Positions 17,336 through 59,516 of a stretch of DNA of 64,000 bases are shown piece after piece. The stretch lies in the NCBI GenBank assembly GCA_041737355.1, contig JBGSRW010000006.1, positions 83,734 to 147,733 of the forward strand, given 5' to 3'. The stretch's first letter is position 1. Each line of letters starts with the position of its first letter. Below the pieces are notes generated by a model. It was not told the origin of the DNA and did no database searches. It saw only the letters and a list, made by a program, of their open reading frames with translations. The stretch is from Patescibacteria group bacterium. GTDB taxonomy: Bacteria; Patescibacteriota; Patescibacteriia; XYB2-FULL-38-15. A program made the position numbers and the translations under genes.

Positions 17336-17591
17336 AAATTTAAAATTATTTTCTAATACGCTCCGTGATTTCCGACCGCTCCTCCATAAAAAGAGTCGGA
17401 ACCAAAGACTGCTCGCCTTCGGCGGAAAATTAAAAAATCATTAACTTATCATAACATAATTTTATAAAAAGGCAAACCCCCAAGCCGGGGCTATTTTGAC
17501 TTAATCCTATATACATTATATATGCTTGACATTTTGGGCGGTTTTGCCAAGATAGAATATCTGGCCCGAATGGATTTGGGCGAGAAAAGGG

Positions 17592-17620
17592 GTCCCGCGG
17601 TATTGCGGGACGGAGGAGGA
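17592..17620 (+). promoter_or_regulatory. Perfect 7-bp hairpin (GTCCCGC-GGTATT-GCGGGAC) directly abutting the GGAGGAGGA ribosome-binding site of the islet gene
   Basis: The hairpin at 17592-17611 and SD at 17612-17620 sit 5 nt before the ATG at 17626; a possible translational control element. Confidence 0.35.
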
Positions 17621-17625
17621 TCAAA

Positions 17626-18303
17626 ATGGGAGACGGACAAACAAAGCCGCACCTTGTCGTGCCGGAACCGAAGAAATGGATGGCACGGGTCATGAAGCAG
17701 CTTTCCGGGGGCGAAGTAACGGGCGGATCCGTCATCGGAGTACGGGAAGCATCTTGCCTGAACGGCAGGCTCGCCTTCACTCTTCTCCGGCAGGGCGGCT
17801 CGTGCGTCGTTGTTTACGGCGACATGAGCGATCCGCTCGAGAGACTGACGAAGAGCGAACCTTTCCGCCAAGTCCTCGGCCTCCGGCTCGCGAACGGCCG
17901 GCCGCTCTACGTCGCCTGGCCGGATGATCCCAAGGACAACCGGCCCTGCGTCTTCTGGGGCAAAACCAAAGAAGGACCGCCCTGCGACGCCATTGACCAC
18001 GAGAGGCTCTCGGTGTGGGACAACGCGCTCCCGCTCTACCCCGGCTGGAGAGACGGCAAGGTTTGCATCTTCCGCGGTAGGGACTATGGCAAACCCTACG
18101 ATGATATCGTAGGCCCGATCTCCATCGTGGGTAACCGCGAACTCTACCGCGCCCGGCTCGGCAAGGAAATGCTTCTTGTCTGGAGCAAACAAGAAAGCGA
18201 GACCTACGAGCACGTTTCGCCGCCCGAGTTCGACGGCAAAGAAGTCACCGCCTGGGCGACAAGATCCGTCAGGTTCTACAAGCTGGCGATCAAGGTCGCC
18301 TAG
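17626..18303 (+). CDS. Hypothetical protein, GC-rich islet gene A
   Basis: 225 aa with the strong SD GGAGGAGGA. Codon third positions are strongly G/C-biased, unlike neighbours; no recognizable domain. The overlapping antisense ORF 17491..18405 is judged spurious. Confidence 0.6.
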   Translation: MGDGQTKPHLVVPEPKKWMARVMKQLSGGEVTGGSVIGVREASCLNGRLAFTLLRQGGSCVVVYGDMSDPLERLTKSEPFRQVLGLRLANGRPLYVAWPDDPKDNRPCVFWGKTKEGPPCDAIDHERLSVWDNALPLYPGWRDGKVCIFRGRDYGKPYDDIVGPISIVGNRELYRARLGKEMLLVWSKQESETYEHVSPPEFDGKEVTAWATRSVRFYKLAIKVA

Positions 18304-18313
18304 GAGACAAGCC

Positions 18314-18847
18314 ATGACGGACGAAAATGAGAAGATGGCTTGTCCGAACTGCGGCTCGGAAGACGTCAAATGCTTCCACCAGCCGAAAAACGGCTTCGTC
18401 ACCATCTGGGACGAGTACGTCTTGCTCTGCCCGAAGTGCCGTCACCACGAAACGCGGCAGGAGCAGGCCGGCTTTTTCTTCTTCCTGCTCTTCTGGTCCC
18501 GCGACACGGTCTGCCCTTTCTGCGGCAAACCGCCCGCGAAACATCAGAAGGGACGGCTTCTCACGGAGATGGCTTCCTTTCTCGATGAAACCGGGGACAA
18601 GGCGAAGGAACTCGATCCGGCCGCCGAGATCTGCCCGGAGTGCGGCAAGGGTGAAATCGTCTGCACTTATCTTGGCGAGAGCGGCACGCCGAGAAATTAC
18701 AACTACGTCTGGGAGCATACCTGCACCCGCTGCGGTTACAACCGCAACTTCACCGAATTCAGCGAGTGCGATGATCCCGATCACGCCGAATTCGTTGACC
18801 GGCACGGTCCCGGCAAAGACGGCGGCTGTCCCGGCCCGCACAAGTAG
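18314..18847 (+). CDS. Cys-rich multi-zinc-ribbon protein, GC-rich islet gene B
   Basis: ATG at 18314 with AGGAG 8 nt upstream, 11 nt after the gene A stop. 177 aa with CPNCGSE, CPKCRHHE, CPFCGK, CPECGKGE, CTRCGY motifs (five CxxC pairs). Confidence 0.6.
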   Translation: MTDENEKMACPNCGSEDVKCFHQPKNGFVTIWDEYVLLCPKCRHHETRQEQAGFFFFLLFWSRDTVCPFCGKPPAKHQKGRLLTEMASFLDETGDKAKELDPAAEICPECGKGEIVCTYLGESGTPRNYNYVWEHTCTRCGYNRNFTEFSECDDPDHAEFVDRHGPGKDGGCPGPHK

Positions 18848-18868
18848 CAGTCAAGGAGGAAATCAACC

Positions 18869-18902
18869 CACCGCAAGGTCCACACTTTGCGGTTTTTTTT
18901 GT
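18869..18902 (+). terminator. Rho-independent terminator after the islet operon
   Basis: CCGCAAGGTCCACACTTTGCGG stem followed by TTTTTTTT. Confidence 0.6.
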
Positions 18903-18955: not shown

Positions 18956-19477
18956 TTAATCAATCGCTAAGTCAATTGCCTGCGGTTTTTCTTCGGCGGC
19001 CGGCTTTCCCGCCGAATTGCCGTTCGTGCTCCGCAGGGCCGAAGTTGTCGCCCGCGGACCGGTAACTTTTTTCGGAGTGAGCGCCGAAGTTTTTGCCGTC
19101 GTCTTTAGCGCCGCGGTTGTCGCGTTCTCCGGTTTTCCGGCCGAAGTCGCTTCGCGCTCGCGCGAGTAAAGTCCGACCATCTTTTTTTGCATCGCCTCCC
19201 TTTGTTTTCTCATGTCGGCCATCGTCAGCTTTGGTTTATCCTCGTCGGCAATTTCTTTTTCCGTGCCGCGGATAACTTCGCCGGTTGATTTATGGACAAT
19301 CCCTTCGCTCCGCAGGGCGCCGACCGCTTTCCTGAATTGGTCCTTACTCACCGACTGTTGATGCAGTAAATTCCCCATCCCGGCTTTTTGTAAAGCTTTC
19401 TCAACCTTAAAAGACGGCTTGCCCGAAGCCTGATGCAAAGCGCTTTTAAATTGTCCCGAAGTAAATCGTAAAGCCAT
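18956..19477 (-). CDS. Hypothetical protein with a low-complexity Ala/Thr/Lys-rich C-terminus
   Basis: Trimmed to ATG at 19477 (MALRFTSGQFKSALHQ...), 11 nt after the kinase-like gene stop; 173 aa; no recognizable domain. Confidence 0.45.
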   Translation of the reverse strand: MALRFTSGQFKSALHQASGKPSFKVEKALQKAGMGNLLHQQSVSKDQFRKAVGALRSEGIVHKSTGEVIRGTEKEIADEDKPKLTMADMRKQREAMQKKMVGLYSREREATSAGKPENATTAALKTTAKTSALTPKKVTGPRATTSALRSTNGNSAGKPAAEEKPQAIDLAID

Positions 19478-19487
19478 AAAAAATATT

Positions 19488-20624
19488 TTAAGCCGCTTTT
19501 TCTTTTGCTTCTTCCGGAAAAAGATAAACCCCGTTGAAGGCCGCTTCAATCTCCCGGCGCGCCTCTTTCTCGTCGTAATTATCCGGCAATTTCTGCGTGG
19601 TGATCATTTCCTCAACTCTGGCCGTAAAATGCTGCCAAATAACTTCCGCGTCTTCGCCCAAAACATTAAAGCATTCGCGGAGAGCTGTTTTGGTTTTGTT
19701 GGATTGCAAAAAATCCTGTAATTTTTTCCCTATTTCCGGAGACAGCGTCGGGTCAAAAGCCTGATCCCCGAGCTTTTCCTTGTTGAACAGTTCCAGCGGC
19801 TCGGACCGCACGGCCAAAGTCGGAAATCTGTCTTTAATTCCAAAGGTGTCGTAAGTCAAACCGCGGCCGAAACTCAAACCGTTATCAATCGCGTGAGCCT
19901 TGCCGGCTTTGTCAACCATAAAATTTCCGCCATGCCGATCCTGACTCCCAATCAGGTAATCGAACAGGGCGATTTTTTGCGCTTCTTCTTCGCTAAGCCC
20001 GGCCTCCGGCCCTCCTTCGTCGTAAGTTTTGGCGTCCGGGATCCAAGCTTGGAACGAACCAACCCCCTGCTCGCCTTTTCGGACAACCGTCGGCGGGGTC
20101 ACATCCAGCCCCAAAGCCCGGTCGGCCATAAATGCCAGCCATTCTCTTTTAAAACTGCTCTTTGGCTCAATCCCCGGCCGCGGACTCAATTCTCCCTTTT
20201 CTCCCAAAACCACTTCCCCGTCAGCCGGCTTAAAAATTCCTTTTCTTTCCCCTTTTTCACCCAGACGCAAAATATATGATGCATTAATACCTTTGTGTTC
20301 GTCGCCCAACGCTTCAATCGGTTTACACGGCGGTTCGCAAGGTTTTGCTTCTTTCAATTCTTGAAGTTTATCCAGCTCTTCGGCAACCTGTTCCGCCGTC
20401 TCCGGCCCGCCCTCCATAATTTTCGCGCCGTAAAGAGCGCTCGTCAGCTGATCCATCCTTGAGAGAAGTCTGTCTTCTTCAATTCTTTTTTCCCGCTCCT
20501 TGGTTTCAGCTTCCTGCTTCCCGATATCCGAAACTTCCGGTTTTTTCTCCGGCACTTCCTTCCCTTCCGGCATTTTCATTTCTTCTATAAAAGCTTCAGG
20601 ATAGCTTGATTCTCTGTCAGCCAT
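19488..20624 (-). CDS. PI3/PI4-kinase-like atypical protein/lipid kinase domain protein
   Basis: 378 aa. An acidic coiled-coil N-terminus, then GIFKPADGE (beta3 Lys region), catalytic loop DRHGGNFMV (PI3/4K DRHxxN) and an IDNGLSF DFG-like activation segment. Confidence 0.55.
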   Translation of the reverse strand: MADRESSYPEAFIEEMKMPEGKEVPEKKPEVSDIGKQEAETKEREKRIEEDRLLSRMDQLTSALYGAKIMEGGPETAEQVAEELDKLQELKEAKPCEPPCKPIEALGDEHKGINASYILRLGEKGERKGIFKPADGEVVLGEKGELSPRPGIEPKSSFKREWLAFMADRALGLDVTPPTVVRKGEQGVGSFQAWIPDAKTYDEGGPEAGLSEEEAQKIALFDYLIGSQDRHGGNFMVDKAGKAHAIDNGLSFGRGLTYDTFGIKDRFPTLAVRSEPLELFNKEKLGDQAFDPTLSPEIGKKLQDFLQSNKTKTALRECFNVLGEDAEVIWQHFTARVEEMITTQKLPDNYDEKEARREIEAAFNGVYLFPEEAKEKAA

Positions 20625-24370: not shown

Positions 24371-25375
24371 ATGTTAAAAAAACACGGGCCGTTTTACCGG
24401 CCAATGTTGAAAAAGGCTTGGGAAATAACCAGCAAAAATCGGTTTCTCTGGGTCTTCGGACTTTTTGCCGCGCTGGCCGGCAACGGAGGTATTTATGAAA
24501 TTTTAGTAAAAGGATTCAACCGCGTCGTCTCGCAGGGAGAAATCCTGTCTCCGCTTTCGGGCGGAATATACGGCTGGGGAATGTTTGCCCTCCCCCGCCT
24601 CGAGGATATCTACGCGGCCTCTCCTCTTTTTGTAAATTTTTTCTGGCTGATTGTTTTTATCGCCATGATCGCGCTCGGCATTCTGATCTGCCTTAACATC
24701 GTCGGGAGAGGCGCCCTGATAAGCTCCGTCAAAAAAATAACCGGCCGGCGGAAAACAAATCTGAAAGACGGCTGGGAGACGGGGAAAAAATATTTTTGGC
24801 CGGTTCTTGGCCTGAACGCCCTGGCCAAAGCCGCGATATTCAGCCTCTTGGTTTTAATCACCGTCCCGGTAATGTTTTTTATCACCGGAGGAAGCGGCGG
24901 TTTCGGATGGAATATCCTCCTCTATATCGGCTCGTTCGTTGTTTTCACCCTGCTCGCCCTCTTTGTTTCCTTTATGGCAATTTACGCTTCGTGTTTCGCC
25001 GTACTTGAAAATCTTCCCTTTGTCGAAGCAATCCGCGCCAGCTGGAATTTGTTTATAAAAAACTGGCTTGTCTCGCTCGAGATGTCTTTGATTCTTTTCG
25101 GAACGGTAATCCTGGCCGGTCTTGCCCTGATTCTCTTCTCCGTCTTTTATCTGATCCCTGTTTCCCTCCTTCTTCTCGCTTTCGCCTATCTCCAGCTCGA
25201 GGTCGGCTTCTGGATTATTATCTTTCTGGCTTTTCTCGGATGGCTTGTCCTTGTCGGGTTCCTCGGTTCGGTTCTTTCCGCTTTCCAATTTTCCGCCTGG
25301 ACCCTGCTTTTCTCCGAAATAAATAAAAAAAGAATTTGGAGCAAACTTTTAAGATTTGTCGGGATAACAAGATAA
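24371..25375 (+). CDS. Polytopic integral membrane protein, unknown function
   Basis: 334 aa with about 7-8 hydrophobic helices; RBS AAGGGGGAAAT; immediately upstream of the second GspE ATPase. Confidence 0.55.
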   Translation: MLKKHGPFYRPMLKKAWEITSKNRFLWVFGLFAALAGNGGIYEILVKGFNRVVSQGEILSPLSGGIYGWGMFALPRLEDIYAASPLFVNFFWLIVFIAMIALGILICLNIVGRGALISSVKKITGRRKTNLKDGWETGKKYFWPVLGLNALAKAAIFSLLVLITVPVMFFITGGSGGFGWNILLYIGSFVVFTLLALFVSFMAIYASCFAVLENLPFVEAIRASWNLFIKNWLVSLEMSLILFGTVILAGLALILFSVFYLIPVSLLLLAFAYLQLEVGFWIIIFLAFLGWLVLVGFLGSVLSAFQFSAWTLLFSEINKKRIWSKLLRFVGITR

Positions 25376-27699: not shown

Positions 27700-28494
27700 T
27701 TATTTTCCTCCGTCTTCTTTGGCTAGCCTTTGCAATTTTCTAATGGCCCTCCCCGCAATTTCCTTCACGCCAGACGAACTGAGACCGTAAGCTTGCTTAA
27801 CGGCGCTTATCTCTGGCTGGCCGTAAAACAGACTCCGCAGAACATCTTGCTCTCGAGAAGAAAGCCGGCCGAGCAAGCGCTCAGCCAAATTGACTGTTTC
27901 CCTGCCTGAAAGTTGGGCTGAGGGATCCCACTCTCTTCCTTTTGCGGGAACAGCCGATTCGCTGATTTCCCCTCTTTTCTCTTCGCGCTTGACCGCCAAC
28001 CTCAGAGCTTCTCTCGTCGGAAAATCAAGAAAATCACGTAACCTGTCTTTCTTGATCTCCGTGATTTCTTCCAATTCTTTCTCTGTTGGCTCTCGGTCTT
28101 CTTTCGAGCGGAAAACATCTCTCGCGTGGCAAATTTCCCGATAAAGTCTCGCTGCTCCGGGTGGAACATTGAGCCTGTTTGCCCACGCTTCGAGAATTGC
28201 CAGAGACATTTCTTTCTTTATCCACCAAACGCTGTAGGTGCTGAACCTGGCTCCCCTTGTCCAGTCAAAACGCCTAATGGCTTTGAGTAAGCCGATTTGC
28301 CCCTCCTGAATCAGGTCTTTCACCGAAAGACCTTTACCAAAATACGGCCTAGCCCAAAAATTGACCAGCCCGAGATTGGCTTCGAATATAATCGCCTCAG
28401 CCGCTCTGTCTCCTACCCTGGCTTTCTGGAAAAGACTAACTTGATCCTTTCTGGAAAGCACCTTGCTTTTAAAGATCTTCTTTTCTTCCGCCAC
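27700..28494 (-). CDS. RNA polymerase sigma-70 family factor (compact)
   Basis: 264 aa. Region 2 is FSTYSVWWIKKEMSLAILE; the region 4 HTH is AYGLSSSGVKEIAGRAIRKLQ. Confidence 0.85.
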   Translation of the reverse strand: MAEEKKIFKSKVLSRKDQVSLFQKARVGDRAAEAIIFEANLGLVNFWARPYFGKGLSVKDLIQEGQIGLLKAIRRFDWTRGARFSTYSVWWIKKEMSLAILEAWANRLNVPPGAARLYREICHARDVFRSKEDREPTEKELEEITEIKKDRLRDFLDFPTREALRLAVKREEKRGEISESAVPAKGREWDPSAQLSGRETVNLAERLLGRLSSREQDVLRSLFYGQPEISAVKQAYGLSSSGVKEIAGRAIRKLQRLAKEDGGK

Positions 28495-29559: not shown

Positions 29560-29772
29560 AAATAAACTTCGTATCGTTAATCTAATATATCCTATCTTTG
29601 TTATCTTGACCTCGCACTTTCTTTTAAAGAAACTGTATTCTTATCTTACCATCATATCAAATTAAAAGACAAGAAAGTACGGGGTTGACAAAGAAAAGCT
29701 CTCGTGTTAAGCTCCAACGTTGCTACCATCCGGGTCTTTTGACCTCGGAGGGGAAGGCAAGGGAGGAACATA

Positions 29773-30234
29773 ATGGAAGGAACGAGCGGGAGCGGCCCGA
29801 AGCCGCAAAGAACCCGAGAAGATGTTATTCGTTCCCGTGGCGTAGCCATTCTGATGCAGATTGCCATGCCTGTGCTTCACGACCGGGGAAGCGACGACGA
29901 TCGTGGCCGGGCCACGAGATGCAAGCTCTTCGACGTCTACGCTGATCCCGAAGGCCGGATGGTCTTCGTTCTGGATATCGCCGACGACGACGAACGGGAT
30001 AGGATCATCGGCGGGGAACACCGACTTCATCTCTCGGCTCTCCAGATTCTCTTTTCCGTGTCGGTCCGTGACACTTTTCCGGTCGAAGAAAGGCAAAACG
30101 TTAACGTAATTGCCGGCATCCGCAATCCCGGCGACGGCTTGATCGTTTTCCCCCAGGAACTCGTCCCGGAGAGCGAGCTCGATCCGCTCGATCCGGAAGA
30201 CGAAGATGACGGGGAGGAAGACGGCGACGCGTAG
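29773..30234 (+). CDS. Hypothetical protein with an acidic C-terminal tail, GC-rich islet 2
   Basis: 153 aa with RBS GGGAGG and a candidate promoter TTGACA-17-TAAGCT at 29686. It is GC-rich unlike the flanks, and ends with EDEDDGEEDGDA. The antisense ORF 29707..30240 is judged spurious. Confidence 0.5.
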   Translation: MEGTSGSGPKPQRTREDVIRSRGVAILMQIAMPVLHDRGSDDDRGRATRCKLFDVYADPEGRMVFVLDIADDDERDRIIGGEHRLHLSALQILFSVSVRDTFPVEERQNVNVIAGIRNPGDGLIVFPQELVPESELDPLDPEDEDDGEEDGDA

Positions 30235-30243
30235 CAACAACGA

Positions 30244-30294
30244 CCCCTCGGTTTGCGCTTCACCACATGTGAACGCCGCGAACCGGGGTTTTTA
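30244..30294 (+). terminator. Candidate terminator: imperfect long hairpin plus U-run
   Basis: CCCCTCGGTTTGCG ... CGCGAACCGGGG followed by TTTTT. Confidence 0.4.
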
Positions 30295-30368
30295 TTATCA
30301 AGCGAGCAAGAGAAATGAAATAAGTTTCATTTCCGAGCGAGCGCGGATAACACGGAGTATTTTAAACC

Positions 30369-33336: not shown

Positions 33337-33509
33337 CTAACAGGTTATCATATCATACGGGATAAATTTGTCAAGAGAACAAAAACCCCTTTTAAAATTT
33401 ACCGAATAGACACAAGACTAAGGGAACTCAAAAGTCTCTTTTTTTATCCTGATCTGTTTTGGTTAAAAATAAAACCCCGTACATTTTGGCACGAGGTTCT
33501 TCTCCACTT

Positions 33510-33929
33510 TTAAAGCAGAGAATCGAGACAACGCAGGTAAATCATCCTAATCTCCTGACGCGAGATAAGCTGGTTCGCGGTCATTCCCGGACCGATGGCG
33601 TGATACCAGCGCAATTCCAAATCACCGCATTTGAAATTGGGCCGTTTGATGGCGCACAATCCGTGGTGCAGGCCGGTCCCCACGCCGCAGGTGCATTTGC
33701 CCCAATGGTAAGGGCGCATTTCGAAAACGCCGTTCTCAAAGTCAATACCTCCGGTGACTCCGCTTTCTTCGTCGGGAATGCCCTTTCCGAGTTCGGCAAG
33801 AAGAAAAGCAATATCCTTAATAGTAGCGCTCGCGAACTCGCCAGCCTCGTCGCCAAATTCCCATTCGCCGTGGAAATTCCGGGCCATCTCGGTGGGCCAT
33901 TCGCTTGATCGGATGCCCCTGCCCTCCAT
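33510..33929 (-). CDS. Hypothetical Cys/His-containing protein, GC-rich islet 3 gene D
   Basis: 139 aa with RBS GGGAGG 7 nt before the ATG; contains HWGKCTCGVGTGLHHGLC; GC-rich. The antisense ORF 33459..33908 is judged spurious. Confidence 0.55.
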   Translation of the reverse strand: MEGRGIRSSEWPTEMARNFHGEWEFGDEAGEFASATIKDIAFLLAELGKGIPDEESGVTGGIDFENGVFEMRPYHWGKCTCGVGTGLHHGLCAIKRPNFKCGDLELRWYHAIGPGMTANQLISRQEIRMIYLRCLDSLL

Positions 33930-34063
33930 AATTCTACCTCCCTTTCCCGGATATCTTACAAAAAATTAGTAACAAATTCAAGAGTAAAAAAAGAGGGCAA
34001 GCTGCCGAAGCAACTTACCCGAAGAACATCAGGAGATTTTTTCTATCTCTCGGCTCTTACCCC

Positions 34064-34690
34064 CTATCGCCGCGGCGCAACCGGGGGAACCCGGATACCG
34101 CGCCGGTCGCGCTGACTCAGGCCGCCGATCTCCTCGTCATCGGCCCGATTTCCTCCGCGCATCATCCATTCGAGGCCCCGCATGGCCATCACTTCTTCGA
34201 CCGAAACCTTCTTGTGCTCGGGACATCCACGTCTAGAGCAGACTTGGATCATCCCGGAAGAGCCGTCCCGGACGTAGAGCGACTTGATACCGACCATCTT
34301 GGCGTTGCAGGTACAGTACGCCACGGTCGGCAGACTTGCACCGCACCACGGACAGAAGAGATCGAGCACTTCACCTTCCCTGATCTCGGGCTCGGAGCGA
34401 ACCGTGCGGCCGCCCCAAGCGGCCGAAACGTGGAGAACGTGATCGCCATCCCGCAGCGCCTCGTTCATGTAACGCCAGCCGATCTTGATTGCCGGATGGC
34501 CGTCGATCTCGCGGACCGGATCGACTAGCCCAATCCCGCAGGCCGGCAAGGGGCAGGCGGCAATGATAATGTTGCCCTGCTGTCCCAAGCGCGCGCACTC
34601 CTTGCAGTGAAGGCCGTCCGGACGAAGTTCCAGAAGACCGCCATGCAAGACGCAAACCCTCGTCTCCTCCCTTTTTCCCTGCATTTCCAC
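34064..34690 (-). CDS. Cys-rich (multi-CxxC) protein, GC-rich islet 3 gene C
   Basis: 208 aa with the perfect SD AAGGAGGTG 5 nt before the ATG; motifs CKECARLG, CPLPACG, CPWCGAS, CTCNAKM, CSRRGCPEH; Arg-rich C-terminus. Confidence 0.6.
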   Translation of the reverse strand: MEMQGKREETRVCVLHGGLLELRPDGLHCKECARLGQQGNIIIAACPLPACGIGLVDPVREIDGHPAIKIGWRYMNEALRDGDHVLHVSAAWGGRTVRSEPEIREGEVLDLFCPWCGASLPTVAYCTCNAKMVGIKSLYVRDGSSGMIQVCSRRGCPEHKKVSVEEVMAMRGLEWMMRGGNRADDEEIGGLSQRDRRGIRVPPVAPRR

Positions 34691-36859: not shown

Positions 36860-37032
36860 TTATTAAGATTTAATTAAAAAACCTCTCGGCTTTTAATTTA
36901 CCTCAAAATCATTAGATTGTAAAGGGTATAAAAAGACTCCTACCCAGGTTGTAATACCATAGATAGGAGTCAGCTAGTCCGTTCCACCCGACGCTCTCAG
37001 CTTACGCCGAAAGCATCAGGATGAAGTTCGAA

Positions 37033-37527
37033 CTACGCAGCGTCCTTGCGGACGGCAAGGATTCTCTCGGGCCGAGGGCCTAGGTCGACCCCAGAGAAAT
37101 CTGGCGGATCGATCCCGCCGCCGGTGAAATCATCACCGTTGAGGATCCGCTCGCCTTCGTGGTATGAGAGAAAAGGGAAGACGTGTCCGCCGTCAGGATC
37201 CGCCCAACGCGAGCCGATAACCACGATTTGGAACTCTCGCTGAAGTCCGGGATAGCGAGCACCAAGAGCTAGAAGATCTTCGATCTTGGCAGGTCGGAGG
37301 CCGTGGCGGTCAAGTTCGGCAATGACCTCACTAGCCGAACGGGGAGAGTACTTGGGGTCATCGGGAACGCGGGCAAGGAGGAGCTCACGCTCCACCTTGC
37401 CCTCACCCGTGATGGGGAAGCGGTCGGAGGAGACGCTGGGGAACACGTCATCGTAATTGCCAGCAGCGACCATCGCTTCGAACGTCTGGCCGTAGTCCAC
37501 CGTGACCTTGTAGGTCCTCTTCTTCAT
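37033..37527 (-). CDS. Hypothetical protein, GC-rich islet 4
   Basis: Trimmed to ATG at 37527 (MKKRTYKVTVDYGQTF...) with RBS GGGAAGG; 164 aa; GC-rich versus flanks; no recognizable domain. Confidence 0.5.
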   Translation of the reverse strand: MKKRTYKVTVDYGQTFEAMVAAGNYDDVFPSVSSDRFPITGEGKVERELLLARVPDDPKYSPRSASEVIAELDRHGLRPAKIEDLLALGARYPGLQREFQIVVIGSRWADPDGGHVFPFLSYHEGERILNGDDFTGGGIDPPDFSGVDLGPRPERILAVRKDAA

Positions 37528-46216: not shown

Positions 46217-46250
46217 TTTAAATGTTCAAAAAAATTAAAAAATACTTTGT

Positions 46251-46667: not shown

Positions 46668-47585
46668 ATGCCAGATTTGAATACTTTAACCACCGAATTC
46701 CTCGAATACCTGGAAATAGAGAAAAACCGATCCAACCAGACCGTGCGGAATTATAATTTCTATCTGAAACGCTTTGCCCAATGGGCCGGAAACGTCTCGG
46801 CCGCCGGGATTACCCAGGACATGGTCCGCCAATACCGCCTCTGGCTGAACCGTTTTGCCGACGACAAGGGCCGAACGCTCAAAAAAAACACCCAAAACTA
46901 TCATCTGATCGCCCTGCGCGCCTTCTTGAAATATCTTGCCAAGCGCGACATCAAAACCTTATCGGCGGAAAAGATAGAATTAGGCAAAATGCCGGAAAGA
47001 ATCGTTGATTTTTTGGAAGGGCCCGACCTTGAACGGCTGCTTGAAACCCCGACCCTTGCCGACTCCCCGGAAATTATCAAAAAAAGAGACAAGGCAATCC
47101 TCGAAATGCTGTTTTCCACCGGATTACGCGTTTCGGAACTGGCCAATTTGAAAAAAGAACAGGTAAATTTGAAAAAAGAAGAATTTACGGTCCGCGGCAA
47201 AGGTGACAAACCCCGGGTTGTCTTCCTCTCAAACCAATCAAAATACTGGCTCGGACAATATCTGGCCGCCCGACGCGACATGTCACCGTATTTATTCGTT
47301 TCCCACGACCGGGCACACGAAAGCGAGGGGGCCCTCACTCCCAGAAGCGTGGAACGGCTCGTCAAAAAATACTCCAAGGCCGCCGGCATCACCAAAAAAG
47401 TTACGCCGCATACCATGAGGCATTCTTATGCCACTGATTTACTGATGAACGGCGCCGATATCCGCTCGGTCCAGGCAATGCTTGGTCACTCTTCAATTAC
47501 TACCACTCAAATTTACACCCATATTACCAATCAGCAGCTTCGCGATGTCCACAAAGCCTTTCACGGACGGAAACGAAACAAATAA
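46668..47585 (+). CDS. Tyrosine recombinase, XerC/XerD family
   Basis: 305 aa with an N-terminal SAM-like core-binding domain (FLEYLEIEKNRSNQTVRNYNFYLKRF) and a catalytic domain with the R...HxxR...Y motifs (HTMRHSYATDLLMNGADIRSVQAMLGHSSITTTQIYTH). Confidence 0.85.
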   Translation: MPDLNTLTTEFLEYLEIEKNRSNQTVRNYNFYLKRFAQWAGNVSAAGITQDMVRQYRLWLNRFADDKGRTLKKNTQNYHLIALRAFLKYLAKRDIKTLSAEKIELGKMPERIVDFLEGPDLERLLETPTLADSPEIIKKRDKAILEMLFSTGLRVSELANLKKEQVNLKKEEFTVRGKGDKPRVVFLSNQSKYWLGQYLAARRDMSPYLFVSHDRAHESEGALTPRSVERLVKKYSKAAGITKKVTPHTMRHSYATDLLMNGADIRSVQAMLGHSSITTTQIYTHITNQQLRDVHKAFHGRKRNK

Positions 47586-51258: not shown

Positions 51259-51326
51259 AATTTTTTTGGTTAATGATTAGCAAAAGAATTGTAGCTTATT
51301 TATCCAAATAAATCAAGATAAAAAAG

Positions 51327-51360
51327 CCCCGGCAACGCGTGGCGCGGCCGGGACGGATTC
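51327..51360 (-). terminator. Candidate terminator downstream of the HD-domain gene
   Basis: Minus strand: GTCCCGGCCGCGCCACGCGTTGCCGGGGC followed by TTTTTTAT. Confidence 0.45.
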
Positions 51361-51367
51361 ATTCCTC

Positions 51368-52183
51368 CTACGCTTCGATCGCTTTCTTGATCTTCCTCGC
51401 GAACTCGCGCCGAACCGCCGCCGGATCGGAACTCCGGGAGGCCAGCTTACCAACAGCGCTCCGCAAGGCGCGGACCATGGCTTCGAGATCGGTTTCGGAG
51501 AGATGCCGGATCTTGCCTTCGGAAGCTTCCAGCGCCCAGGAATTGACCTTGAGCGTTCCCTCGATCCAGCTTTGAAGCTCGGCGTTGTAGATTTCTCCGA
51601 CCGAAGGGAATTCCCCGGCGTACTTCACGAGCGTCTCGTGGTGCCGGGCGAAAACCGAGATGAATTTCTCGTTACCGTGCCCGACGAACTCGAATAGGGC
51701 GTAAAGCACGTAATCGAGCTTTTCCATCGCGTCGAAAAATTTCGCCTCGACGCTTTCCGCCGGCAGGCAGTAGACCCGCCGCAGGAAGGATGCAAGGAAA
51801 CCGAGCCGGTCCATCTGGATCAGGGTTTCCTCGTGCTCGATCTGCTCGTAGACCTCCTCGATCCGCGGATCATGCTTGAAGACGTAGCGGATGTCACCGA
51901 TCGCCCCTTCCGAGAACTCGTGAATCACTGCGTGCGTCATGACCAAGAGCTCGTCGATCTTGTTCTTGCCGGCCTTCCGCTCAAGCTCAAGACAATAGGC
52001 CGCAAGCAGGGCAATGGAAAGCGAATGGTGTGCCGAGGTCTGCCGCTGGTGGCGGTTCGGGTAGCCCTCCCACCTTCCGCAGCGCAGCAGACGGTCGAAG
52101 ACGTCGAAGACGCCGCCGACGAACTTGGCCATCTCAAGACGCCTCTCCAGGGCGGGGTCTTTGTTCTTGCCGCAATCATCCAT
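51368..52183 (-). CDS. HD-superfamily phosphohydrolase, YfbR-like (5'-deoxynucleotidase-like); GC-rich
   Basis: 271 aa: YPNRHQRQTSAHHSLSIALLAAY and VMTHAVIHEFSEGAIGDI align with the YfbR His...HD motifs, but the usual HD reads HE here; GC-rich codon usage. Confidence 0.55.
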   Translation of the reverse strand: MDDCGKNKDPALERRLEMAKFVGGVFDVFDRLLRCGRWEGYPNRHQRQTSAHHSLSIALLAAYCLELERKAGKNKIDELLVMTHAVIHEFSEGAIGDIRYVFKHDPRIEEVYEQIEHEETLIQMDRLGFLASFLRRVYCLPAESVEAKFFDAMEKLDYVLYALFEFVGHGNEKFISVFARHHETLVKYAGEFPSVGEIYNAELQSWIEGTLKVNSWALEASEGKIRHLSETDLEAMVRALRSAVGKLASRSSDPAAVRREFARKIKKAIEA

Positions 52184-52286
52184 CTTTCTCCTCCCTTTCC
52201 TGGTTTTGTTTTTCCCAATATCTCTTTCGGGTTTGGATAAGTTTAGGAAATAAAGAAACTAATGTCAAACAAAGTCATCCACACCT

Positions 52287-52315
52287 TTGACATGGCTAAA
52301 AATCTTTGGTATATT
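52287..52315 (+). promoter_or_regulatory. Near-consensus sigma-70 promoter TTGACA-17 nt-TATATT
   Basis: TTGACA at 52287-92, a 17-nt spacer, TATATT at 52310-15. Confidence 0.45.
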
Positions 52316-52347
52316 TAAAATACTTTAATCACTAATCCAATAAAAAT

Positions 52348-52464
52348 ATGGGACAAAATAGCGCGGCGAAAGCCAGAACAAAACACGCTCTCAAAAATAC
52401 CAAAAAGGGCAAACAATTGCGCAAACACACCAAGAGATTAAAGCCTTGTACCTGCTGTTCTTAA
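52348..52464 (+). CDS. Candidate 38-aa highly basic small protein (MGQNSAAKARTKHALKNTKKGKQLRKHTKRLKPCTCCS)
   Basis: A small ORF between the strong promoter (52287-315) and a strong terminator (52481-509); no SD; ends in CTCC; below the ORF-track length cutoff. Confidence 0.25.
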   Translation: MGQNSAAKARTKHALKNTKKGKQLRKHTKRLKPCTCCS

Positions 52465-52480
52465 TAAAAAATAGCTCAAG

Positions 52481-52509
52481 AAAAAAAGAGGCCGCTTGGC
52501 CTCTTTTTG
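52481..52509 (+). terminator. Rho-independent terminator
   Basis: A7-AGAGGCC-gctt-GGCCTCT-TTTTT. Confidence 0.65.
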
Positions 52510-52605
52510 TTTCTGCTCTACTCCCAGGCACTTGACGGACGGCCTGATTTTATTTAAACTTAATTTTCGTTCTGATAAAATATAGGTGAGGAAGGGAGGA
52601 CCGGA

Positions 52606-53364
52606 ATGAAGACAAAAATGACGTACCTGGCCATTTTTGCCGTGCTTTGCGGCTGCCGCAACGAATTCATTGACCTGACTCGGGAGGAATACGGGGTCGT
52701 TACCCAAATCATGATCCGTCCCGACTTCCCCGAGGGAGACGGCTCAATCGCCGTCCCCAAGGGGGACCAATCAAACACGGCGAATTACAAACTGAGGGCG
52801 TACGTCTACAACCACGACGGCATGCCCTTGTACCGGCCGATCGATTGGCGGGTTTCCGACCCGGCCCTGGTCGAACTCATGCCGGAAACCGACGACCCTC
52901 CGACCCACGAAGCCAGAGCCGCCATCCGGACTCTCCAAGACGTCTTCGACGCGGAAGGCGAAACCGAACCGGAAGCCACGATCACGGCCTGCGTCACGAA
53001 CGACTGCGAAGGATACGGCGGAGAAGTCGTCTGCGAACCGGAAATTTGCAGCGCGCCGATTACCGTGAAAGGCGTCGTGAATGCCGAAGGGGCTTGGGAA
53101 CTCTCGGGCGCGACTTTCCCCTTCACGGTGGCAATCTACACCAGCCAGACCGGACGGACGCTCGACGCAATCTCGAGCTATTACGAGCCGGAAATCCACG
53201 GCAACCAGATCAATTTCTCGGCTGGCAGCACAAGCTACGTCGGCCACTTCACCGACCGGACGCGCGTCACGGGCGAAGCGATTGTCTCCCCGAGCGGCGA
53301 CAATCTCGGAACCTGGACAGCGGTAAAGTGTCCGGACACCGGCTGCACCGGCGCCGGGCCATAG
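52606..53364 (+). CDS. Predicted lipoprotein, GC-rich
   Basis: 252 aa with the lipobox FAVLCGC at residues 12-18 and RBS GGAAGGGAGG; many Cys in the mature part (CVTNDCEGYGGEVVCEPEICS, CPDTGCTG). The overlapping ORFs 52771..53400(-) and 52845..53441(+) are judged spurious GC-driven frames. Confidence 0.55.
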   Translation: MKTKMTYLAIFAVLCGCRNEFIDLTREEYGVVTQIMIRPDFPEGDGSIAVPKGDQSNTANYKLRAYVYNHDGMPLYRPIDWRVSDPALVELMPETDDPPTHEARAAIRTLQDVFDAEGETEPEATITACVTNDCEGYGGEVVCEPEICSAPITVKGVVNAEGAWELSGATFPFTVAIYTSQTGRTLDAISSYYEPEIHGNQINFSAGSTSYVGHFTDRTRVTGEAIVSPSGDNLGTWTAVKCPDTGCTGAGP

Positions 53365-53411
53365 CTGACTTCCATCGTGCCGGAACATCGGTTCCGGCAA
53401 CCCACATCACG

Positions 53412-53445
53412 CTTTGGTGTGGGTATTTTTTTATAAAATAAAAAA
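53412..53445 (+). terminator. Candidate terminator after the lipoprotein gene
   Basis: CCCACA-tcacgctttgg-TGTGGG followed by TATTTTTTT; preceded by an 8-bp perfect hairpin GCCGGAAC-atcg-GTTCCGGC (53378-97). Confidence 0.45.
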
Positions 53446-53479
53446 AGCCGGGCACGCAAGGTGTCCGGCGAACTGAAAA

Positions 53480-54343
53480 CTACAAAGGCTTCAAGCTGAC
53501 CACGGTGTTCTCACGCCGCGTCACGGCATCCTCCAGCCGTTTCTTGAAAGCCATCAACTCCCCGTTTTTCTCGAGAGCCGGATTTTTCTGGATGATCTGG
53601 CGAAACTCGTCGAGCATCGCCGCCAGTTCCTTATCTCGCCGCTCCATCAGGCGTACGAGCGACTGGTTGCTCGAACGTTCGGTCTGAAGCCTAGCCCTCA
53701 AATCTACTGGATCCAGGACGGGCGCCACGCCTTTCCGCAAAGGCGGCGGCGGAGCCGCGGCGGGACGCGGCGGAAATTTGGACAGCAGTTCTTTAGCTGC
53801 CAGTTCTTCCTGCGTCTCTCGCAGCGCCCGGCGCAGTTGGTTGGTAGTTGTATCAACCCGATCAATCTCCATCTTGGTACGCTTGAGCGCTTCCGAAGTC
53901 TGTTTGGCCACTCTGGCCTGAAGGCGCAAAAACCCTGTCAGGCTCCCTCGCCCCATGATGGAAATTAGCCCGTCTTCGTCGAGCCAGACAAGATTGGTCG
54001 GCTCAACGACTCTGGCGGCCTTTGTGTAGATGGGATGCTCTCTACGCAGAAGCAGCTCGTCTACGCCCAAGAGTTCCTGGGATATCGCCGTGGCAACCAC
54101 CTCGCCGGCAACGATAATTTCTACCTTGCCGAGAACGATATAGCAGCAACGATTGACTTCCTCGCCCTCCTGGAAAATCCAAGTCCCTGGCTGCTTTTCC
54201 ACGACAACGAGATGCTGATCGAGGAGCTTTATGAGATGCGGCCGGCCTTTGGTCAAATCTTCCAAAGTGTCGCGGCCGTCCTCGCTTCCCCCTCCGTTCT
54301 CCCCGGCACTTTCGCCGCAATCTTTGGTTTCCTCTCCCATCAC
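53480..54343 (-). CDS. Cyclic-nucleotide-binding (cNMP/CAP-like) domain protein with C-terminal coiled-coil and Pro-rich segment; GC-rich
   Basis: Trimmed to ATG at 54343 (MGEETKDCGES...) with RBS GAGGAGGG 6 nt upstream. The cNMP-binding beta-roll is WIFQEGEEVNRCCYIVLGKVEIIVAGEVVATAISQELLGVDELLL; then a long coiled-coil and PPRPAAAPPPPL. Confidence 0.6.
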   Translation of the reverse strand: MMGEETKDCGESAGENGGGSEDGRDTLEDLTKGRPHLIKLLDQHLVVVEKQPGTWIFQEGEEVNRCCYIVLGKVEIIVAGEVVATAISQELLGVDELLLRREHPIYTKAARVVEPTNLVWLDEDGLISIMGRGSLTGFLRLQARVAKQTSEALKRTKMEIDRVDTTTNQLRRALRETQEELAAKELLSKFPPRPAAAPPPPLRKGVAPVLDPVDLRARLQTERSSNQSLVRLMERRDKELAAMLDEFRQIIQKNPALEKNGELMAFKKRLEDAVTRRENTVVSLKPL

Positions 54344-54448: not shown

Positions 54449-54534
54449 AACTCTACAATAAGTAACGGTCAAATCACCATTACTCTACATATCTGCCCCA
54501 CTCCCGCCTAAGCGGGACGGCTTTTGGGGGCTTT

Positions 54535-56547: not shown

Positions 56548-56551
56548 AGAT

Positions 56552-59149
56552 ATGCAAGATAAAATAATTATAAAAGGCGCTCGGGAACATAATCTGAAAA
56601 ATGTTTCTTTGGAAATTCCAAGAAACAAATTAACCGTTTTTACCGGACTTTCCGGCTCGGGAAAATCGAGCCTGGCTTTTGATACCATTTTTGCCGAAGG
56701 CCAACGACGTTATGTTGAATCCCTTTCAGCTTATGCCCGGCAATTTTTGGGCCAGATGGATAAACCCGACGTCGACGAAATCGAAGGATTGTCGCCGGCC
56801 ATTTCCATTGACCAGAAAGCCCACAGCGCCAATCCCCGCTCCACGGTTGCAACTATTACGGAAATTTATGATTACCTCCGCGTTCTTTTTGCGAGAATTG
56901 GAAAACCACACTGCCCAATCTGTGGCAAGGAAATAAGAAAAATGACTGTTGAAGAAATGGTTGATTTAATTTTGAGAAAAACTACAGAGATTCATAATTC
57001 AAAAAAGAGCCATCTTTCCGTTACAAATGCTTCCGACCATATCACAATCCTGGCTCCGGTTGTCCGGGGAAGAAAAGGCGAATATTACCAGATGCTCTAC
57101 GATTTTTATAACAATGGTTTTTCCGAAGTCCGGGTCAACGGAAAATTCCGGGAATTAAAAAATAAAATCGTTCTCCCCCGCTACCAGCAGCACAACATCG
57201 ATCTTGTCGTCGACAAAGTTACTCTTGGCTGGCCGCTCGAAAATAATAAAGGTTTAAGGGCCCGTCTCGCCGAAGCGGTTGAGGCCGCCCTGAAATACGG
57301 GCAGGATGTCGTAACAGTTATTTTGGACAACGGCCAGGAAATGGTCATGTCTTCCAAGTTTTCCTGCCCGGAAGATGAATTTTCCTTCCCTGAAATCGAA
57401 CCGCGCCTTTTCTCTTTCAATAGTCCGTATGGCGCCTGCCAGACCTGCCACGGCTTGGGCACGGAATTTTTATTCTCCGAAACTCCCTGCCCGGACTGCC
57501 ACGGCGACCGTTTGCGCAAAGAAAGCTTGCATGTCTTCGTCGCCGGAAAAAATATCGTCGAAGTAACGAAAATGCCGGTTGAAAACGCGCAAAAATTTTT
57601 CGACCTCATCTCTTCTCCAACAAACAAAAAAAATTCTCTGAGTAAAGTCGATCTGGAAATTGCGAGTACCGTCTTAAAAGAAATAAAAAGTCGGCTTCAG
57701 TTTATGCTTGATGTCGGTTTAGGATATCTTACTTTGAACCGAACGGCTGGGACTCTTTCCGGCGGCGAAGCGCAAAGAATCCGCCTCGCTTCGCAAGTTG
57801 GCTCAAGACTGGTCGGCGCAACTTATATTTTGGACGAGCCGACAATCGGCCTGCATCCGAAAGATAATGAAAAATTATTGGCTACTTTGAAAAACATCAA
57901 AGACATCGGCAATACCGTCATTGTCGTTGAGCACGACCCAGAGACAATCTGGATGGCCGACTATTTGGTTGATCTTGGACCCGGAGCCGGCACCCACGGC
58001 GGAGAAATTGTCGCGGCTGGTCCGATGCCCGACGTCCTGGAAAATAAAAAATCCCTGACCGCAGCTTATTTACGTGGCGACAAAGAAATTGCCATACCGG
58101 AAAAACGCCGCCATGTCGACGGGAAAAGTAAATCCTTCCCTTCCGGCCAGATGAAAATCGTCGGCGCTACGGAAAATAATTTAAAAAATATTGATGTCAA
58201 AATTCCGCTCAAGAGATTTGTTTGCGTGACTGGCGTTTCCGGATCGGGAAAAAGTACTTTGGTAAATGATATTCTCTGGAAAGCCCTTTCCAACAAACTT
58301 AACCACACAAATTATCAGGTCGGGAAACACGCCCGGGTTGAGGGGCTGGATTATTTGGATAAAGTTATTGTTATTGACCAGTCACCCATCGGCCGAACAC
58401 CAAGGTCAAATCCGGTTACCTATACCGGTGCCTGGACGCATATCCGCGAGCTCTTTACCGCGCTTCCCGAATCGCGGGCCCGTGGCTACCAACCCGGCCG
58501 TTTCAGTTTTAATGTTCCAAACCAACGTGGTGGCGGACGCTGTGAAAATTGCGAAGGCGGCGGCATGATTAAAATTGAAATGCATTTTCTCCCGGCCGTT
58601 TATGTTACCTGCCCGGTTTGCAAAGGCACGAGATTCGACCGCGAAACTCTAGCGATTCAATATAAAGGAAAAAATATCCATGATGTCCTGGCGATGACTA
58701 TTGAGGAGGCGGAAGAATTTTTCAAAAATATTCCTCCTGTCAACGACCGGCTGAAAATTTTACGCGAAGTCGGCTTGCAATATTTGACTCTTGGCCAAAG
58801 CGCTACAACATTGTCCGGCGGCGAGGCACAGCGCATTAAACTGGGCGCCGAACTGGCCCGCCGTTCCACGGGACGGACAATTTATATTTTGGATGAGCCG
58901 ACCGTAGGTTTACATTACGCCGATGTGGAAAAACTGCTTGAGGTTCTGCACCGCCTGGTAAGTTTGGGTAATACCGTCATTGTCATTGAGCACAATCTTG
59001 ATTTTATAAAAACGGCCGACTGGATTATCGATCTCGGGCCGGACGGCGGAGACGCCGGCGGGCAGCTGATTGCGGCTGGCACCCCGGAAGATTTGGCAAA
59101 AAATCAAAAATCTTACACCGGGCAATACCTGAAGAAAACTTTGAAATAA
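56552..59149 (+). CDS. uvrA: Excinuclease ABC subunit A (compact, 865 aa)
   Basis: Two ABC ATPase modules ([12 protein letters not shown]; [12 protein letters not shown]), zinc fingers (CPICGKE; CQTCHGLG...CPDCHG; CENCEGGG...CPVCKG) and LSGGEAQRI signatures twice. Confidence 0.95.
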
Positions 59150-59186
59150 AATAAATATATAAAAAGAGCCCGAAAAATTTCCGAGC

Positions 59187-59459
59187 TCATTTCCTGGTCT
59201 GGTAGGAATTCCATCCCGCCGGCAAGGAGATGCCACACTGGGTAAAAATAGCCGCTACTTCGTCGGTTACGCCAGCGCACTGTTTCGAGGAAAAATACTT
59301 GATCGCCGCCTGGATTCTCGCAGCCGCTGCCTGTTTGTTATCTGAAGCATGGACGATCCATTCGACATCAGGAACGAAGCAACCGGCCGCCGCGTCCCAA
59401 ACCACCAGGAAAAACCTGGTCGGGTTGAAAAGTGCCTCTTTGAGGCAGACAATTCTCAC
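59187..59459 (-). CDS. Hypothetical small protein, GC-rich islet 5
   Basis: 90 aa with a GTG start and RBS GGAGGTGA 5 nt upstream; GC-rich, inserted between uvrA and uvrC; no recognizable domain. Confidence 0.45.
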   Translation of the reverse strand: MRIVCLKEALFNPTRFFLVVWDAAAGCFVPDVEWIVHASDNKQAAAARIQAAIKYFSSKQCAGVTDEVAAIFTQCGISLPAGWNSYQTRK

Positions 59460-59516
59460 CTCTCACCTCCTTTCGTGGCTTTATCTTAAAACAAAAACAA
59501 ACCAATTGTCAATCGT

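Follow-up and report, generated by a model that had tools for sequence, protein, structure and literature searches.

The 64-kb stretch of Patescibacteria contig JBGSRW010000006.1 analyzed here (the window; mean GC content 0.471) carries housekeeping genes for GyrA, NusB, RNase III, a type IV pilus/type II secretion system (T2SS) set, S1, TsaD/TsaE, HSP20, VanW, H+-PPase, an M23 peptidase, ComM, LspA, DksA, PNPase, S15, Xer and UvrABC. At the junctions between these operons lie six GC-rich islets that together encode ten proteins, designated ISL1a to ISL6, in nine units (Table 1). Their composition sets the islet genes apart from the rest of the window, and comparison with related genomes suggests that they are old, vertically inherited residents of this lineage that persist in a compositional state of their own.

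That there are at least six GC-rich islets in an AT-rich core had been proposed from a reading of the sequence alone. The islets are real, their ten genes being outliers against the 46 core genes of the window, whereas the core, at 46-47% GC, is not strongly AT-rich. A 200-nt GC scan returned long GC-rich runs at 17551-18900, 29701-30350, 34001-34750, 36951-37600 and 51301-54200 and a weak one at 59201-59450, islet 6 being a marginal outlier. The GC content of the ten coding sequences (CDSs) spans 0.535 (ISL6) to 0.626 (ISL3b), and GC at third codon positions (GC3) ranges over 0.615-0.783, compared with a core mean of 0.507 (n = 46, standard deviation 0.043, maximum 0.607); the resulting z-scores, from +2.5 (ISL6) up to +6.4, amount to the foreign composition expected of an islet acquired by horizontal gene transfer (HGT). 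The excess is restricted to CDSs: spacers inside and beside the islets have a GC content of 0.30-0.49, like native intergenic DNA, and the 422-nt spacer within islet 5 stands at 0.377. Within the CDSs GC is elevated at all three codon positions, with NNC and NNG codons favoured. The codon shift is greatest in two-fold codons (TTC 0.78 in islets vs 0.34 in the core, TAC 0.84 vs 0.40) and extends to others (ATC 0.68 vs 0.31, AAG 0.63 vs 0.24); GC1, GC2 and amino-acid usage are shifted as well, K, I and N being depleted and R, G, P, C and D enriched. Islet gene calls were taken from Logan annotations and are consistent with the GC1/GC2/GC3 pattern. The Cys/His richness noted at first sight was borne out (Cys 2.8% in islet proteins vs 0.6% in core proteins; His 2.4% vs 1.4%). 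RNA genes as the source of the GC peaks were ruled out, none of the five tRNAs in the window lying within an islet and Rfam giving zero matches. A further GC-rich stretch (0.57) at 39601-40150, within the conserved comM gene (39136-40737), is present in relatives too and is therefore protein-constrained rather than an islet.

Table 1. Islet genes and associated signals in the window. GC3, GC at third codon positions; SD, Shine-Dalgarno site; dG, free energy in kcal/mol; aa, amino acids.
Feature	Position (nt)	Strand	Description
ISL1a	17626..18303	+	225 aa; first of two-gene unit; GC 0.611, GC3 0.761
ISL1a SD			GGAGGAGGA; dG -11.8
ISL1b	18314..18847	+	177 aa; Cys-rich, zinc-ribbon protein (predicted); GC 0.592, GC3 0.775; SD AGGAG, dG -7.3
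ISL1a-ISL1b terminator	18870..18901	+	10-bp stem, then T8
ISL2	29773..30234	+	153 aa; acidic; GC 0.589, GC3 0.662; SD GGGAGG, dG -11.5
ISL2 terminator hairpin	30242..30297	+	dG -26.2, z -3.7, then UUUUUAUUAU
ISL3a terminator	33461..33500	-	12-bp stem and T-run
ISL3a	33510..33929	-	139 aa; GC 0.548, GC3 0.629; SD GGGAGG, dG -12.8
ISL3b terminator	33985..34020	-	11-bp stem and T-run
ISL3b	34064..34684	-	206 aa; GC 0.626, GC3 0.734; SD AGGAGG, dG -12.5
ISL4 terminator hairpin	36927..36971	-	two-hairpin 3' region, dG -52.8, z -7.7; second hairpin, then UCUUUUUAU
ISL4	37033..37527	-	164 aa; C-type-lectin-fold (predicted) homolog of a diversity-generating retroelement variable protein; GC 0.602
ISL5a terminator	51318..51354	-	GC-rich hairpin, then U6
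ISL5a	51368..52183	-	271 aa; GC 0.592, GC3 0.783; SD GGGAGG, dG -11.5
ISL5a promoter-like site	52268-52240		TTGACA-17-TAAACT
ISL5b	52606..53364	+	252 aa; GC 0.606, GC3 0.759; SD GGGAGG, dG -11.6
ISL5b terminator	53400..53434	+	10-bp stem and T7
ISL5c terminator	53440..53469	-	hairpin, then U7
ISL5c	53480..54340	-	286 aa; GC 0.573, GC3 0.662; SD AGGAGG, dG -12.1
ISL5c promoter-like box	54399-54371		
ISL6 terminator	59161..59188	-	10-bp stem and U5, z -4.6
ISL6	59187..59459	-	90 aa; between UvrA and UvrC; GC 0.535, GC3 0.615 (z +2.5); SD AGGAGG, dG -13.2

The islet genes also differ from the core in their translation-initiation signals, as the sequence-only reading had maintained. A GGAGG or AGGAGG Shine-Dalgarno (SD) site accompanies 9/10 islet genes, islet SDs sitting 6-10 nt upstream of the start with a mean duplex free energy (dG) of -10.9 kcal/mol. 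The core mean is -2.3, with values of -6 or below in 7/46 genes only (islet vs core, Mann-Whitney p = 8.5e-6); the other 39 have AT-rich leaders with no recognizable SD (for example, the genes at 13514-16027, 34823-36859 and 56552-59149). A strong SD may be needed to translate GC-rich, structured mRNAs amid unstructured AT-rich leaders. Core genes that do have a strong SD are mostly fast-evolving or variable, such as those at 42293-43381 (40% identity to the related locus L007) and 24371-25375 (61%); further examples are a sigma-factor gene, a DUF3006 gene and the gene at 61924-63540. Each islet had also been credited with a private promoter and terminator. The terminators stand, a factor-independent hairpin and U-run closing all nine units, and consensus-like -35/-10 boxes were found for ISL5a, ISL5b and ISL5c only.

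Comparison loci were gathered in three ways: by probing genomes with the PPase, by probing metagenomes with UvrB, and by exact-protein look-ups of homologs. The closest genome-level relatives of the window are Patescibacteria metagenome-assembled genomes (MAGs), namely JBMORR01 ("Patescibacteria group bacterium"), a Falkowbacteria MAG and OZ246416.1. The last of these (locus L008), an 886-kb chromosome, was deposited under the name "uncultured Gammaproteobacteria bacterium". It shares synteny with the window over ~20 kb, with 74-94% protein identity for most shared genes, and the Gammaproteobacteria label is probably wrong. Automated scanning of the relatives' loci for compositional outliers proved too crude, since greedy choice of open reading frames (ORFs) takes antisense frames in GC-rich DNA and the median absolute deviation (MAD) is inflated in short loci.

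The closest relatives are L171/L172, a single contig recovered from two samples, and L087, which shares its JGI metagenome with L171. Their core proteins have 75-98% identity to those of the window, and all comparable islets occupy the same junctions, a distribution at odds with recent gain. Ortholog identities there are 59% for ISL2, 72% for ISL3a, 52% for ISL3b, 45% for ISL4, 60% for ISL5a, 81% for ISL5b, 63% for ISL5c and 63% for ISL6. The ISL2 ortholog shared by L171 and L172 has a GC content of 0.63 and retains the SD; that of ISL4 in L171 lies between M23 and PPase; and ISL3b has orthologs at the PPase|VanW junction in L171 as well as in L007 (45%) and L008 (37%), with GC contents of 0.58-0.64. 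ISL5b is found at the Band7|UvrB junction of seven full-length relatives (45-81% identity) with a GC content of 0.56-0.62, compared with 0.39-0.47 in the flanks, and a conserved SD. Orthologs of ISL5a (~60%) occur in L087 and L167 and are absent in L088, L090, L092 and L109; those of ISL5c (33-65%) occur in L087, L167, L089 and L090; and those of ISL6 (GC 0.54-0.55) in L087 and, at 41% identity, in L090. Among distant relatives (core identity ~84-92%), ISL3b, ISL5b, ISL5c and ISL6 are shared, ISL5b by all of them (45-64%) and ISL5c and ISL6 by some, whereas ISL2, ISL3a, ISL4 and ISL5a are absent, the first three of them in the comparison with the L007/L008 clade only. Repeated acquisition had been inferred in the sequence-only reading, and this staggered distribution fits gains at different times; it is the recent date that fails, the orthologs standing at the same junctions, with synonymous divergence like that of the flanks, and retaining their high GC and SDs in genomes whose GC content is 41-51%.

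Empty sites at two junctions show how such units are placed between genes that are adjacent in relatives. The M23|PPase site of L007 measures 153 nt and can be aligned with the window spacer at either end, so that the ISL4 insertion is one block of ~733 nt (36952-37684) comprising leader, SD, CDS and terminator; at TsaD|tRNA-Glu|HSP20, where ISL2 resides, L007 has 198 nt vs 998 nt in the window. Extra GC-rich, SD-led genes occur in relatives at junctions where the window has none (14439-14927 and 18758-19072 in L171; 2474-2728 in L090). Gain and loss at operon junctions thus recur in the clade, yet none of the comparable islets of the window is recent. The islet orthologs have a GC content of 0.54-0.64 in every relative, though the host loci stand at 0.41-0.51; their GC3 exceeds that of the local core by about 0.14-0.27 across genomes; and they keep the GGAGG SD next to core genes that have none. 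Taken together, such GC-rich, SD-led orthologs of islet genes occupy matching junctions in L007, L008, L087, L088, L090, L092, L109, L167, L171 and L172, loci drawn from several other samples. High GC is thus a persistent property of these genes and no mark of recent import.

The divergence of the islet genes tells the same story. Between the window and L087, synonymous divergence (dS) is indistinguishable between islets (0.78-1.25) and flanks (0.77-1.27), and the ratio of nonsynonymous to synonymous divergence (dN/dS) is 0.15-0.23 in islets compared with 0.04-0.07 in Band7 and UvrABC and 0.15 in PGI. Between L090 and L109, ISL5b has a dS of 1.09 vs 0.82-0.94 in the flanks, a dN of 0.32 vs 0.02-0.08, and a GC3 of 0.65-0.68 vs 0.38-0.44. 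Against L171, dS of the window genes is 0.91 for ISL2, 1.46 for ISL3b and 1.59 for ISL4 and is saturated for ISL3a, the core ranging over 0.5-1.5. Overall, dN/dS is 0.15-0.29 in islets vs mostly 0.02-0.12 in flanking genes: islet proteins evolve several-fold faster than their neighbours and are still under purifying selection. On this evidence the islet genes are real genes under relaxed purifying selection, broadly co-inherited with their flanks. In the L090/L109/L092 clade (ISL5b orthologs at ~8.0-8.9 kb of each locus), core proteins differ by 5-7% and ISL5b by 38-49%, with dS 1.1-1.7 times that of the flanks, which points either to very fast protein evolution of a surface lipoprotein or to old alleles that have been maintained.

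With dS of about 1 or more and the excess present in every relative, the high GC of the islets is not the fading trace of a high-GC donor. Had the islet genes been decaying imports evolving under the core regime, an offset of +0.25 in GC3 could not have survived synonymous turnover of this size per lineage; a two-state estimate from dS puts the GC3 required of their common ancestor with L090-type genomes above 1. Third-position changes were polarised directly in a trio of homogeneous composition in which L167 is the outgroup to the window and L087. Core genes had 207 changes from strong (G or C) to weak (A or T) bases (S>W) and 208 in the opposite direction (W>S), implying an equilibrium GC3 of 0.51, whereas islet 5, with 61 and 33, implied 0.68; the per-site W>S rate was 0.217 in islet 5 vs 0.128 in the core (1.7x; Fisher p = 0.004). 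The implied equilibrium of islets was above that of the core in 3/4 trios, the other trios being small, with outgroups of differing GC and hence unstable core estimates, and serving as caveats only. We conclude that a GC-favouring bias probably acts in islet genes.

Searches for the means of mobility were negative. None of the islets contains a transposase or integrase, as had been stated and as domain, phage-family and defence-family searches confirmed; the sole integrase-family gene of the window (46668-47585) is a conserved Xer-like gene with 86-88% identity in relatives. A PHROG phage-family search of the window gave no notable matches and a defence-system search only weak matches of a cNMP-binding domain to Pycsar effector models, and the genes flanking the islets are those of a housekeeping chromosome (GyrA, TsaD, PPase, UvrABC), not of a phage or prophage. 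The view that these are several independent single- or few-gene units rather than one prophage or island was upheld. The companion suggestion of a mobile family of cassettes did not survive, because the ten proteins are mutually unrelated (best E = 0.38 in an all-vs-all BLASTP) and share no repeats; no direct or inverted repeats common to islet borders were found, and a sensitive blastn search of the window with each islet as query revealed neither diverged islet copies nor copies resembling template or variable regions of retroelements. The window yielded no duplicated tRNA-Glu fragment (att site); ISL2 lies 5' of the tRNA, and insertion into a tRNA 3' end was not seen. A higher-GC donor, possibly the host of an episymbiont, had also been envisaged, and none could be identified: a database of 5.8 billion proteins holds no more than 6 relatives of ISL3b, 19 of ISL4 and 8 of ISL5a, all of them metagenomic proteins, one from a Microgenomates MAG, and those contexts that were checkable for relatives of islet proteins proved to be syntenic Patescibacteria genomes. 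IMG/VR scans with ISL1a, ISL2, ISL4 and ISL5b as single proteins and with an alignment of the ISL4 family returned no relatives, at limited sensitivity.

The account towards which we lean, with moderate confidence, draws on the observed composition, SD sites, terminators, synteny, dN/dS ratios and retroelement homology: nine moron-like units, old and vertically inherited, form a distinct and persistent GC-rich, SD-led gene class. The units, self-contained within six islets, each with its own SD and terminator, and encoding ten unrelated, lineage-restricted accessory proteins, would have entered a Patescibacteria lineage at various times in the past, by whatever mode, lodging at operon junctions, and would since have been inherited along with the flanking genes. 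A fixation bias favouring GC would hold the islet genes at their own compositional state; candidates for such a bias are selection on the mRNA or CDS tied to SD-dependent translation, and GC-biased gene conversion (gBGC) at variable loci. A further reading, which we regard as doubtful, is that this Patescibacteria clade runs two translation-initiation regimes, an AT-led core without SDs and a strictly SD-dependent, selectively maintained GC-rich accessory set, a "translational regulon" of fast-evolving lipoprotein, zinc-finger, lectin and cNMP-binding proteins, probably serving interaction with host or phage, whose composition selection would have kept apart from the genomic equilibrium for long evolutionary times.

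Other origins for the pattern can be weighed against the same observations. If the islets were repeated recent imports from higher-GC donors such as an episymbiont host, with GC and SD as donor signatures yet to ameliorate, a foreign-looking composition at all codon positions with shifted amino-acid usage would be expected and is seen; ISL2, ISL3a, ISL4 and ISL5a are missing from some relatives, and relatives carry other GC-rich, SD-led genes at other junctions. Every comparable islet, however, has a same-junction ortholog in the closest relatives with dS about that of the flanks, the GC3 offset of about 0.2-0.27 is kept across lineages near synonymous saturation, the spacers within islets are native and AT-rich, and no homologs of ISL3b, ISL4 or ISL5a were found in sampled high-GC taxa; we judge recent transfer unlikely, and for islets 3b, 5 and 6 it is largely refuted. 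Chimeric joins to reads of a higher-GC organism during assembly or binning are barely credible as a source. Mis-assembly is effectively excluded: single Logan contigs from run SRR28170473, matching the window at 100% identity, span 11/12 islet junctions (those on either side of islets 1, 3, 5 and 6, of islet 2 up to tRNA-Glu, and the left junction of islet 4), and orthologous islets stand between the same core genes in other metagenomes (JGI Ga0315286, Ga0265297 and Ga0172380; L167 from SRR32929652), the ISL4 ortholog of L171 among them, and in the GenBank records JBMORR01 and OZ246416. All that speaks for an artefact is the right junction of islet 4 (37596-37639), where contigs L006 and L002 end 44 nt apart in the non-coding leader of the ISL4 insertion.

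Two further explanations would make the islets native. Very high expression, with SDs, promoters and NNC codons as products of translational selection, would account for a codon shift that is strongest in two-fold NNY codons, for the strong SD sites and for the TTGACA promoters at islet 5, and core genes likely to be highly expressed (S1, HSP20, GyrA) are slightly NNC-enriched. We rate it a poor prospect nonetheless: S15 and S1 have a GC3 of 0.50-0.51 and an NNC fraction of 0.44-0.49, values well below those of the islets and evidence against simple optimisation of codons for expression; codon selection leaves the GC1, GC2 and amino-acid shifts unexplained; and highly expressed genes normally evolve slowly, whereas the islets have 3-6 times the dN/dS of the core. 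Hypervariable loci whose alleles are exchanged time and again among related Patescibacteria through homologous recombination in the conserved flanks, gaining GC from gBGC under frequent recombination or from a GC-richer allele pool, are somewhat less improbable than either transfer or expression. Such swapping would explain why ISL5b distance within L090/L109/L092 (0.38-0.49; core 0.05-0.07) equals that between clades, why the W>S rate is raised in islet 5, and why dS of ISL3a, ISL3b and ISL4 against L171 lies above that of most flanks; the proportion of synonymous differences (pS) between L007 and L008 is likewise 0.74 for ISL3b vs 0.51 for PPase, with VanW (0.67) and M23 and ComM (0.69-0.71) nearly as high. 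On the other side, islet-5 dS equals that of the flanks in the window-L087 pair and is near it in L090-L109. The GC excess stops at CDS borders, as the AT-rich 422-nt spacer illustrates, a sharp limit that argues against purely tract-based gene conversion, since conversion of whole tracts would need strong selection on the spacers. Reported effects of gBGC in bacteria are, moreover, far smaller than +0.25 GC3.

Several observations weigh against old, vertically inherited units at a compositional equilibrium of their own. The comparison with relatives covers islets 2-6; the portion of the genome analyzed is 64 kb; and the SD statistics depend on predicted start codons. The dS values of ISL3a, ISL3b and ISL4 against L171 reach or exceed the highest core values, so that some allelic replacement may have taken place, and ISL5b and core protein distances are poorly correlated (r = 0.44, p = 0.10; ratio 2.7-7.1). 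In the three other trios, islet S>W changes exceed W>S (26:5, 10:4 and 12:5), with implied equilibria of 0.44-0.62, and some slow GC loss in islets is likely; parsimony, as Eyre-Walker reportedly pointed out in 1998, over-counts common-to-rare changes in biased sequences, in which case the true S>W excess would be smaller.

For one of the islet genes the comparative data point to a possible source. ISL4 is 46% identical to P0013, the target gene of a diversity-generating retroelement (DGR) at locus L169, is predicted to adopt the C-type lectin/FGE-like fold of DGR variable proteins, and is a member of a family whose C-terminus is hypervariable. In L169 the variable region (VR) lies at 10423-10558 inside the P0013 gene and the template region (TR) at 10954-11088, with bAvd and RVT_1 alongside, and the VR/TR pair shows A-specific mismatches. 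The full L169 cassette (9555-14194 of JGI Ga0209172_10000228), consisting of a helix-turn-helix (HTH) gene, VR target, TR, bAvd and reverse transcriptase (RT), has a serine recombinase at its side, and its insertion site adjoins an Xer-S15-NYN block that is syntenic with 45695-47585 of the window. No TR-like copy of ISL4 or of its C-terminus was detected in the 64-kb window by sensitive blastn, and the genes examined there showed no sign of an RT; a DGR acting in trans from elsewhere in the genome may serve ISL4. Foldseek found no significant match to the ISL4 model among viral structures. A DGR clade restricted to Patescibacteria, and VRs situated in C-type lectin folds, have been described (Roux et al. 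2021, PMC8144416). ISL4 is, as far as sequence comparison can tell, an orphan C-type-lectin homolog of a DGR variable protein; it resembles the DGR targets of bacteria of the candidate phyla radiation (CPR) in fold, in the hypervariable C-terminus of its family and in homology to the VR-bearing P0013, and it differs from them in having no TR, Avd or RT in the window, the other nine islet genes having no DGR link at all. It would represent a further case of a DGR target family dispersed away from its retroelement and points to DGR-bearing or other mobile CPR elements as one source of such units.

The closest known systems are phage morons, HGT islets and, for this one gene, DGR targets. Morons, a concept of Juhala and Hendrix, are like the islets in being single genes or pairs of deviant composition that have their own terminator and, in three of the islet units, a promoter-like site, and no recombinase, and they are placed, as ISL2, ISL3a and ISL4 are, between genes adjacent in relatives. 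They differ in that the islets sit between chromosomal housekeeping operons rather than in a prophage, are old and vertically inherited, and share a lasting signature, a GC-rich CDS combined with a strong SD. DNA gained by transfer is in most cases richer in AT than the genome that receives it. Genomic islets of HGT have deviant composition, patchy distribution and accessory content in common with those described here, one of which lies beside a tRNA gene, whereas these have no integrase, direct repeats or att sites, a GC content above the host's, and a deviation that is confined to CDSs and has not ameliorated over dS of about 1-2. Integron cassettes are likewise small, compact ORF units of variable presence; the islets, in contrast, are scattered singly, unrelated in sequence, without IntI, terminal repeats or shared attC-like imperfect inverted repeats, and each unit has its own terminator, three also having a promoter-like site. 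The combination of persistence, higher-than-host GC and an SD dichotomy appears new, and literature searches on SD usage or GC-rich islands in Patescibacteria turned up nothing relevant. Compositional outliers are routinely read as recent HGT, and here GC-richer accessory genes keep both GC and SD over dS of about 1 or more. If this is true genome-wide, calls of recent HGT based on GC or GC3 in Patescibacteria MAGs would be misleading; a GC-rich CDS with a GGAGG SD and a private terminator would be a signature of lineage-specific, probably interaction-related genes of episymbionts; and these genes would offer a clean natural case of a separate compositional equilibrium in which SD-dependent mRNA selection can be set against biased gene conversion.

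The islet proteins themselves are diverse. ISL1a, also called as a gene in a Logan contig, has 71 HMMER relatives, the closest seven being of similar size at 32-46% identity and the distant ones repeat proteins of 400-700 aa. ISL1b, with 14 Cys, five CxxC motifs and a Zn_ribbon_8 match below threshold, is predicted to be a multi-zinc-site protein with several zinc ribbons. A multi-zinc-site protein is also predicted for ISL3b, whose family has 11 Cys and 3 His invariant columns; its structure prediction has a pLDDT of 39. ISL5a is a YfbR-like HD-domain hydrolase (PF12917, E = 4.9e-13), ISL5b a predicted lipoprotein with the N-terminus MKTKMTYLAIFAVLCGC, in which a lipobox can be read, and ISL5c consists of a cNMP-binding domain (PF00027, 27.8 bits; cut-off 27.5), a coiled coil and a Pro-rich tail.

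Several neighbouring features vary as well. Next to islet 1, a gene for a PI3_PI4_kinase-like protein (378 aa; 19488-20624) and one for a 197-aa protein (18956-19549), with GC contents of 0.50-0.51, are unusual in a CPR setting, and the variable region may extend over them. ISL2 lies between TsaD and tRNA-Glu(TTC) (30419-30496), and the tRNA gene is inverted relative to its flanks when compared with L007 (16018-16093), L008 (15894-16160) and L171 (14242-14319). In L008 a second copy of the tRNA-Glu 3' end (CCCGTTGGGGCTA) ~170 nt downstream resembles an att scar, and a further GC-rich gene, of 162 aa, occupies this junction in L171; the site is a rearrangement hot spot. A sigma-70-family gene between TsaE and TsaD (27700-28494), SD-led (GAGG) with a GC content of 0.494 and no GC signature, is absent in L007/L008, where TsaE abuts TsaD, and is represented in L171 by a 330-aa version (51% identity over 70 aa); it is another variable insertion. 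Directly upstream of the uvrB start, a GGGG(G)A-T6-GCGTAT element is conserved in L090, L109 and L167, and a looser version (GGGGGCTTT) lies at 54510-54534 of the window, at the called TTG start; this G-run/T-run element does not qualify as an SD at normal spacing and may play a regulatory role.

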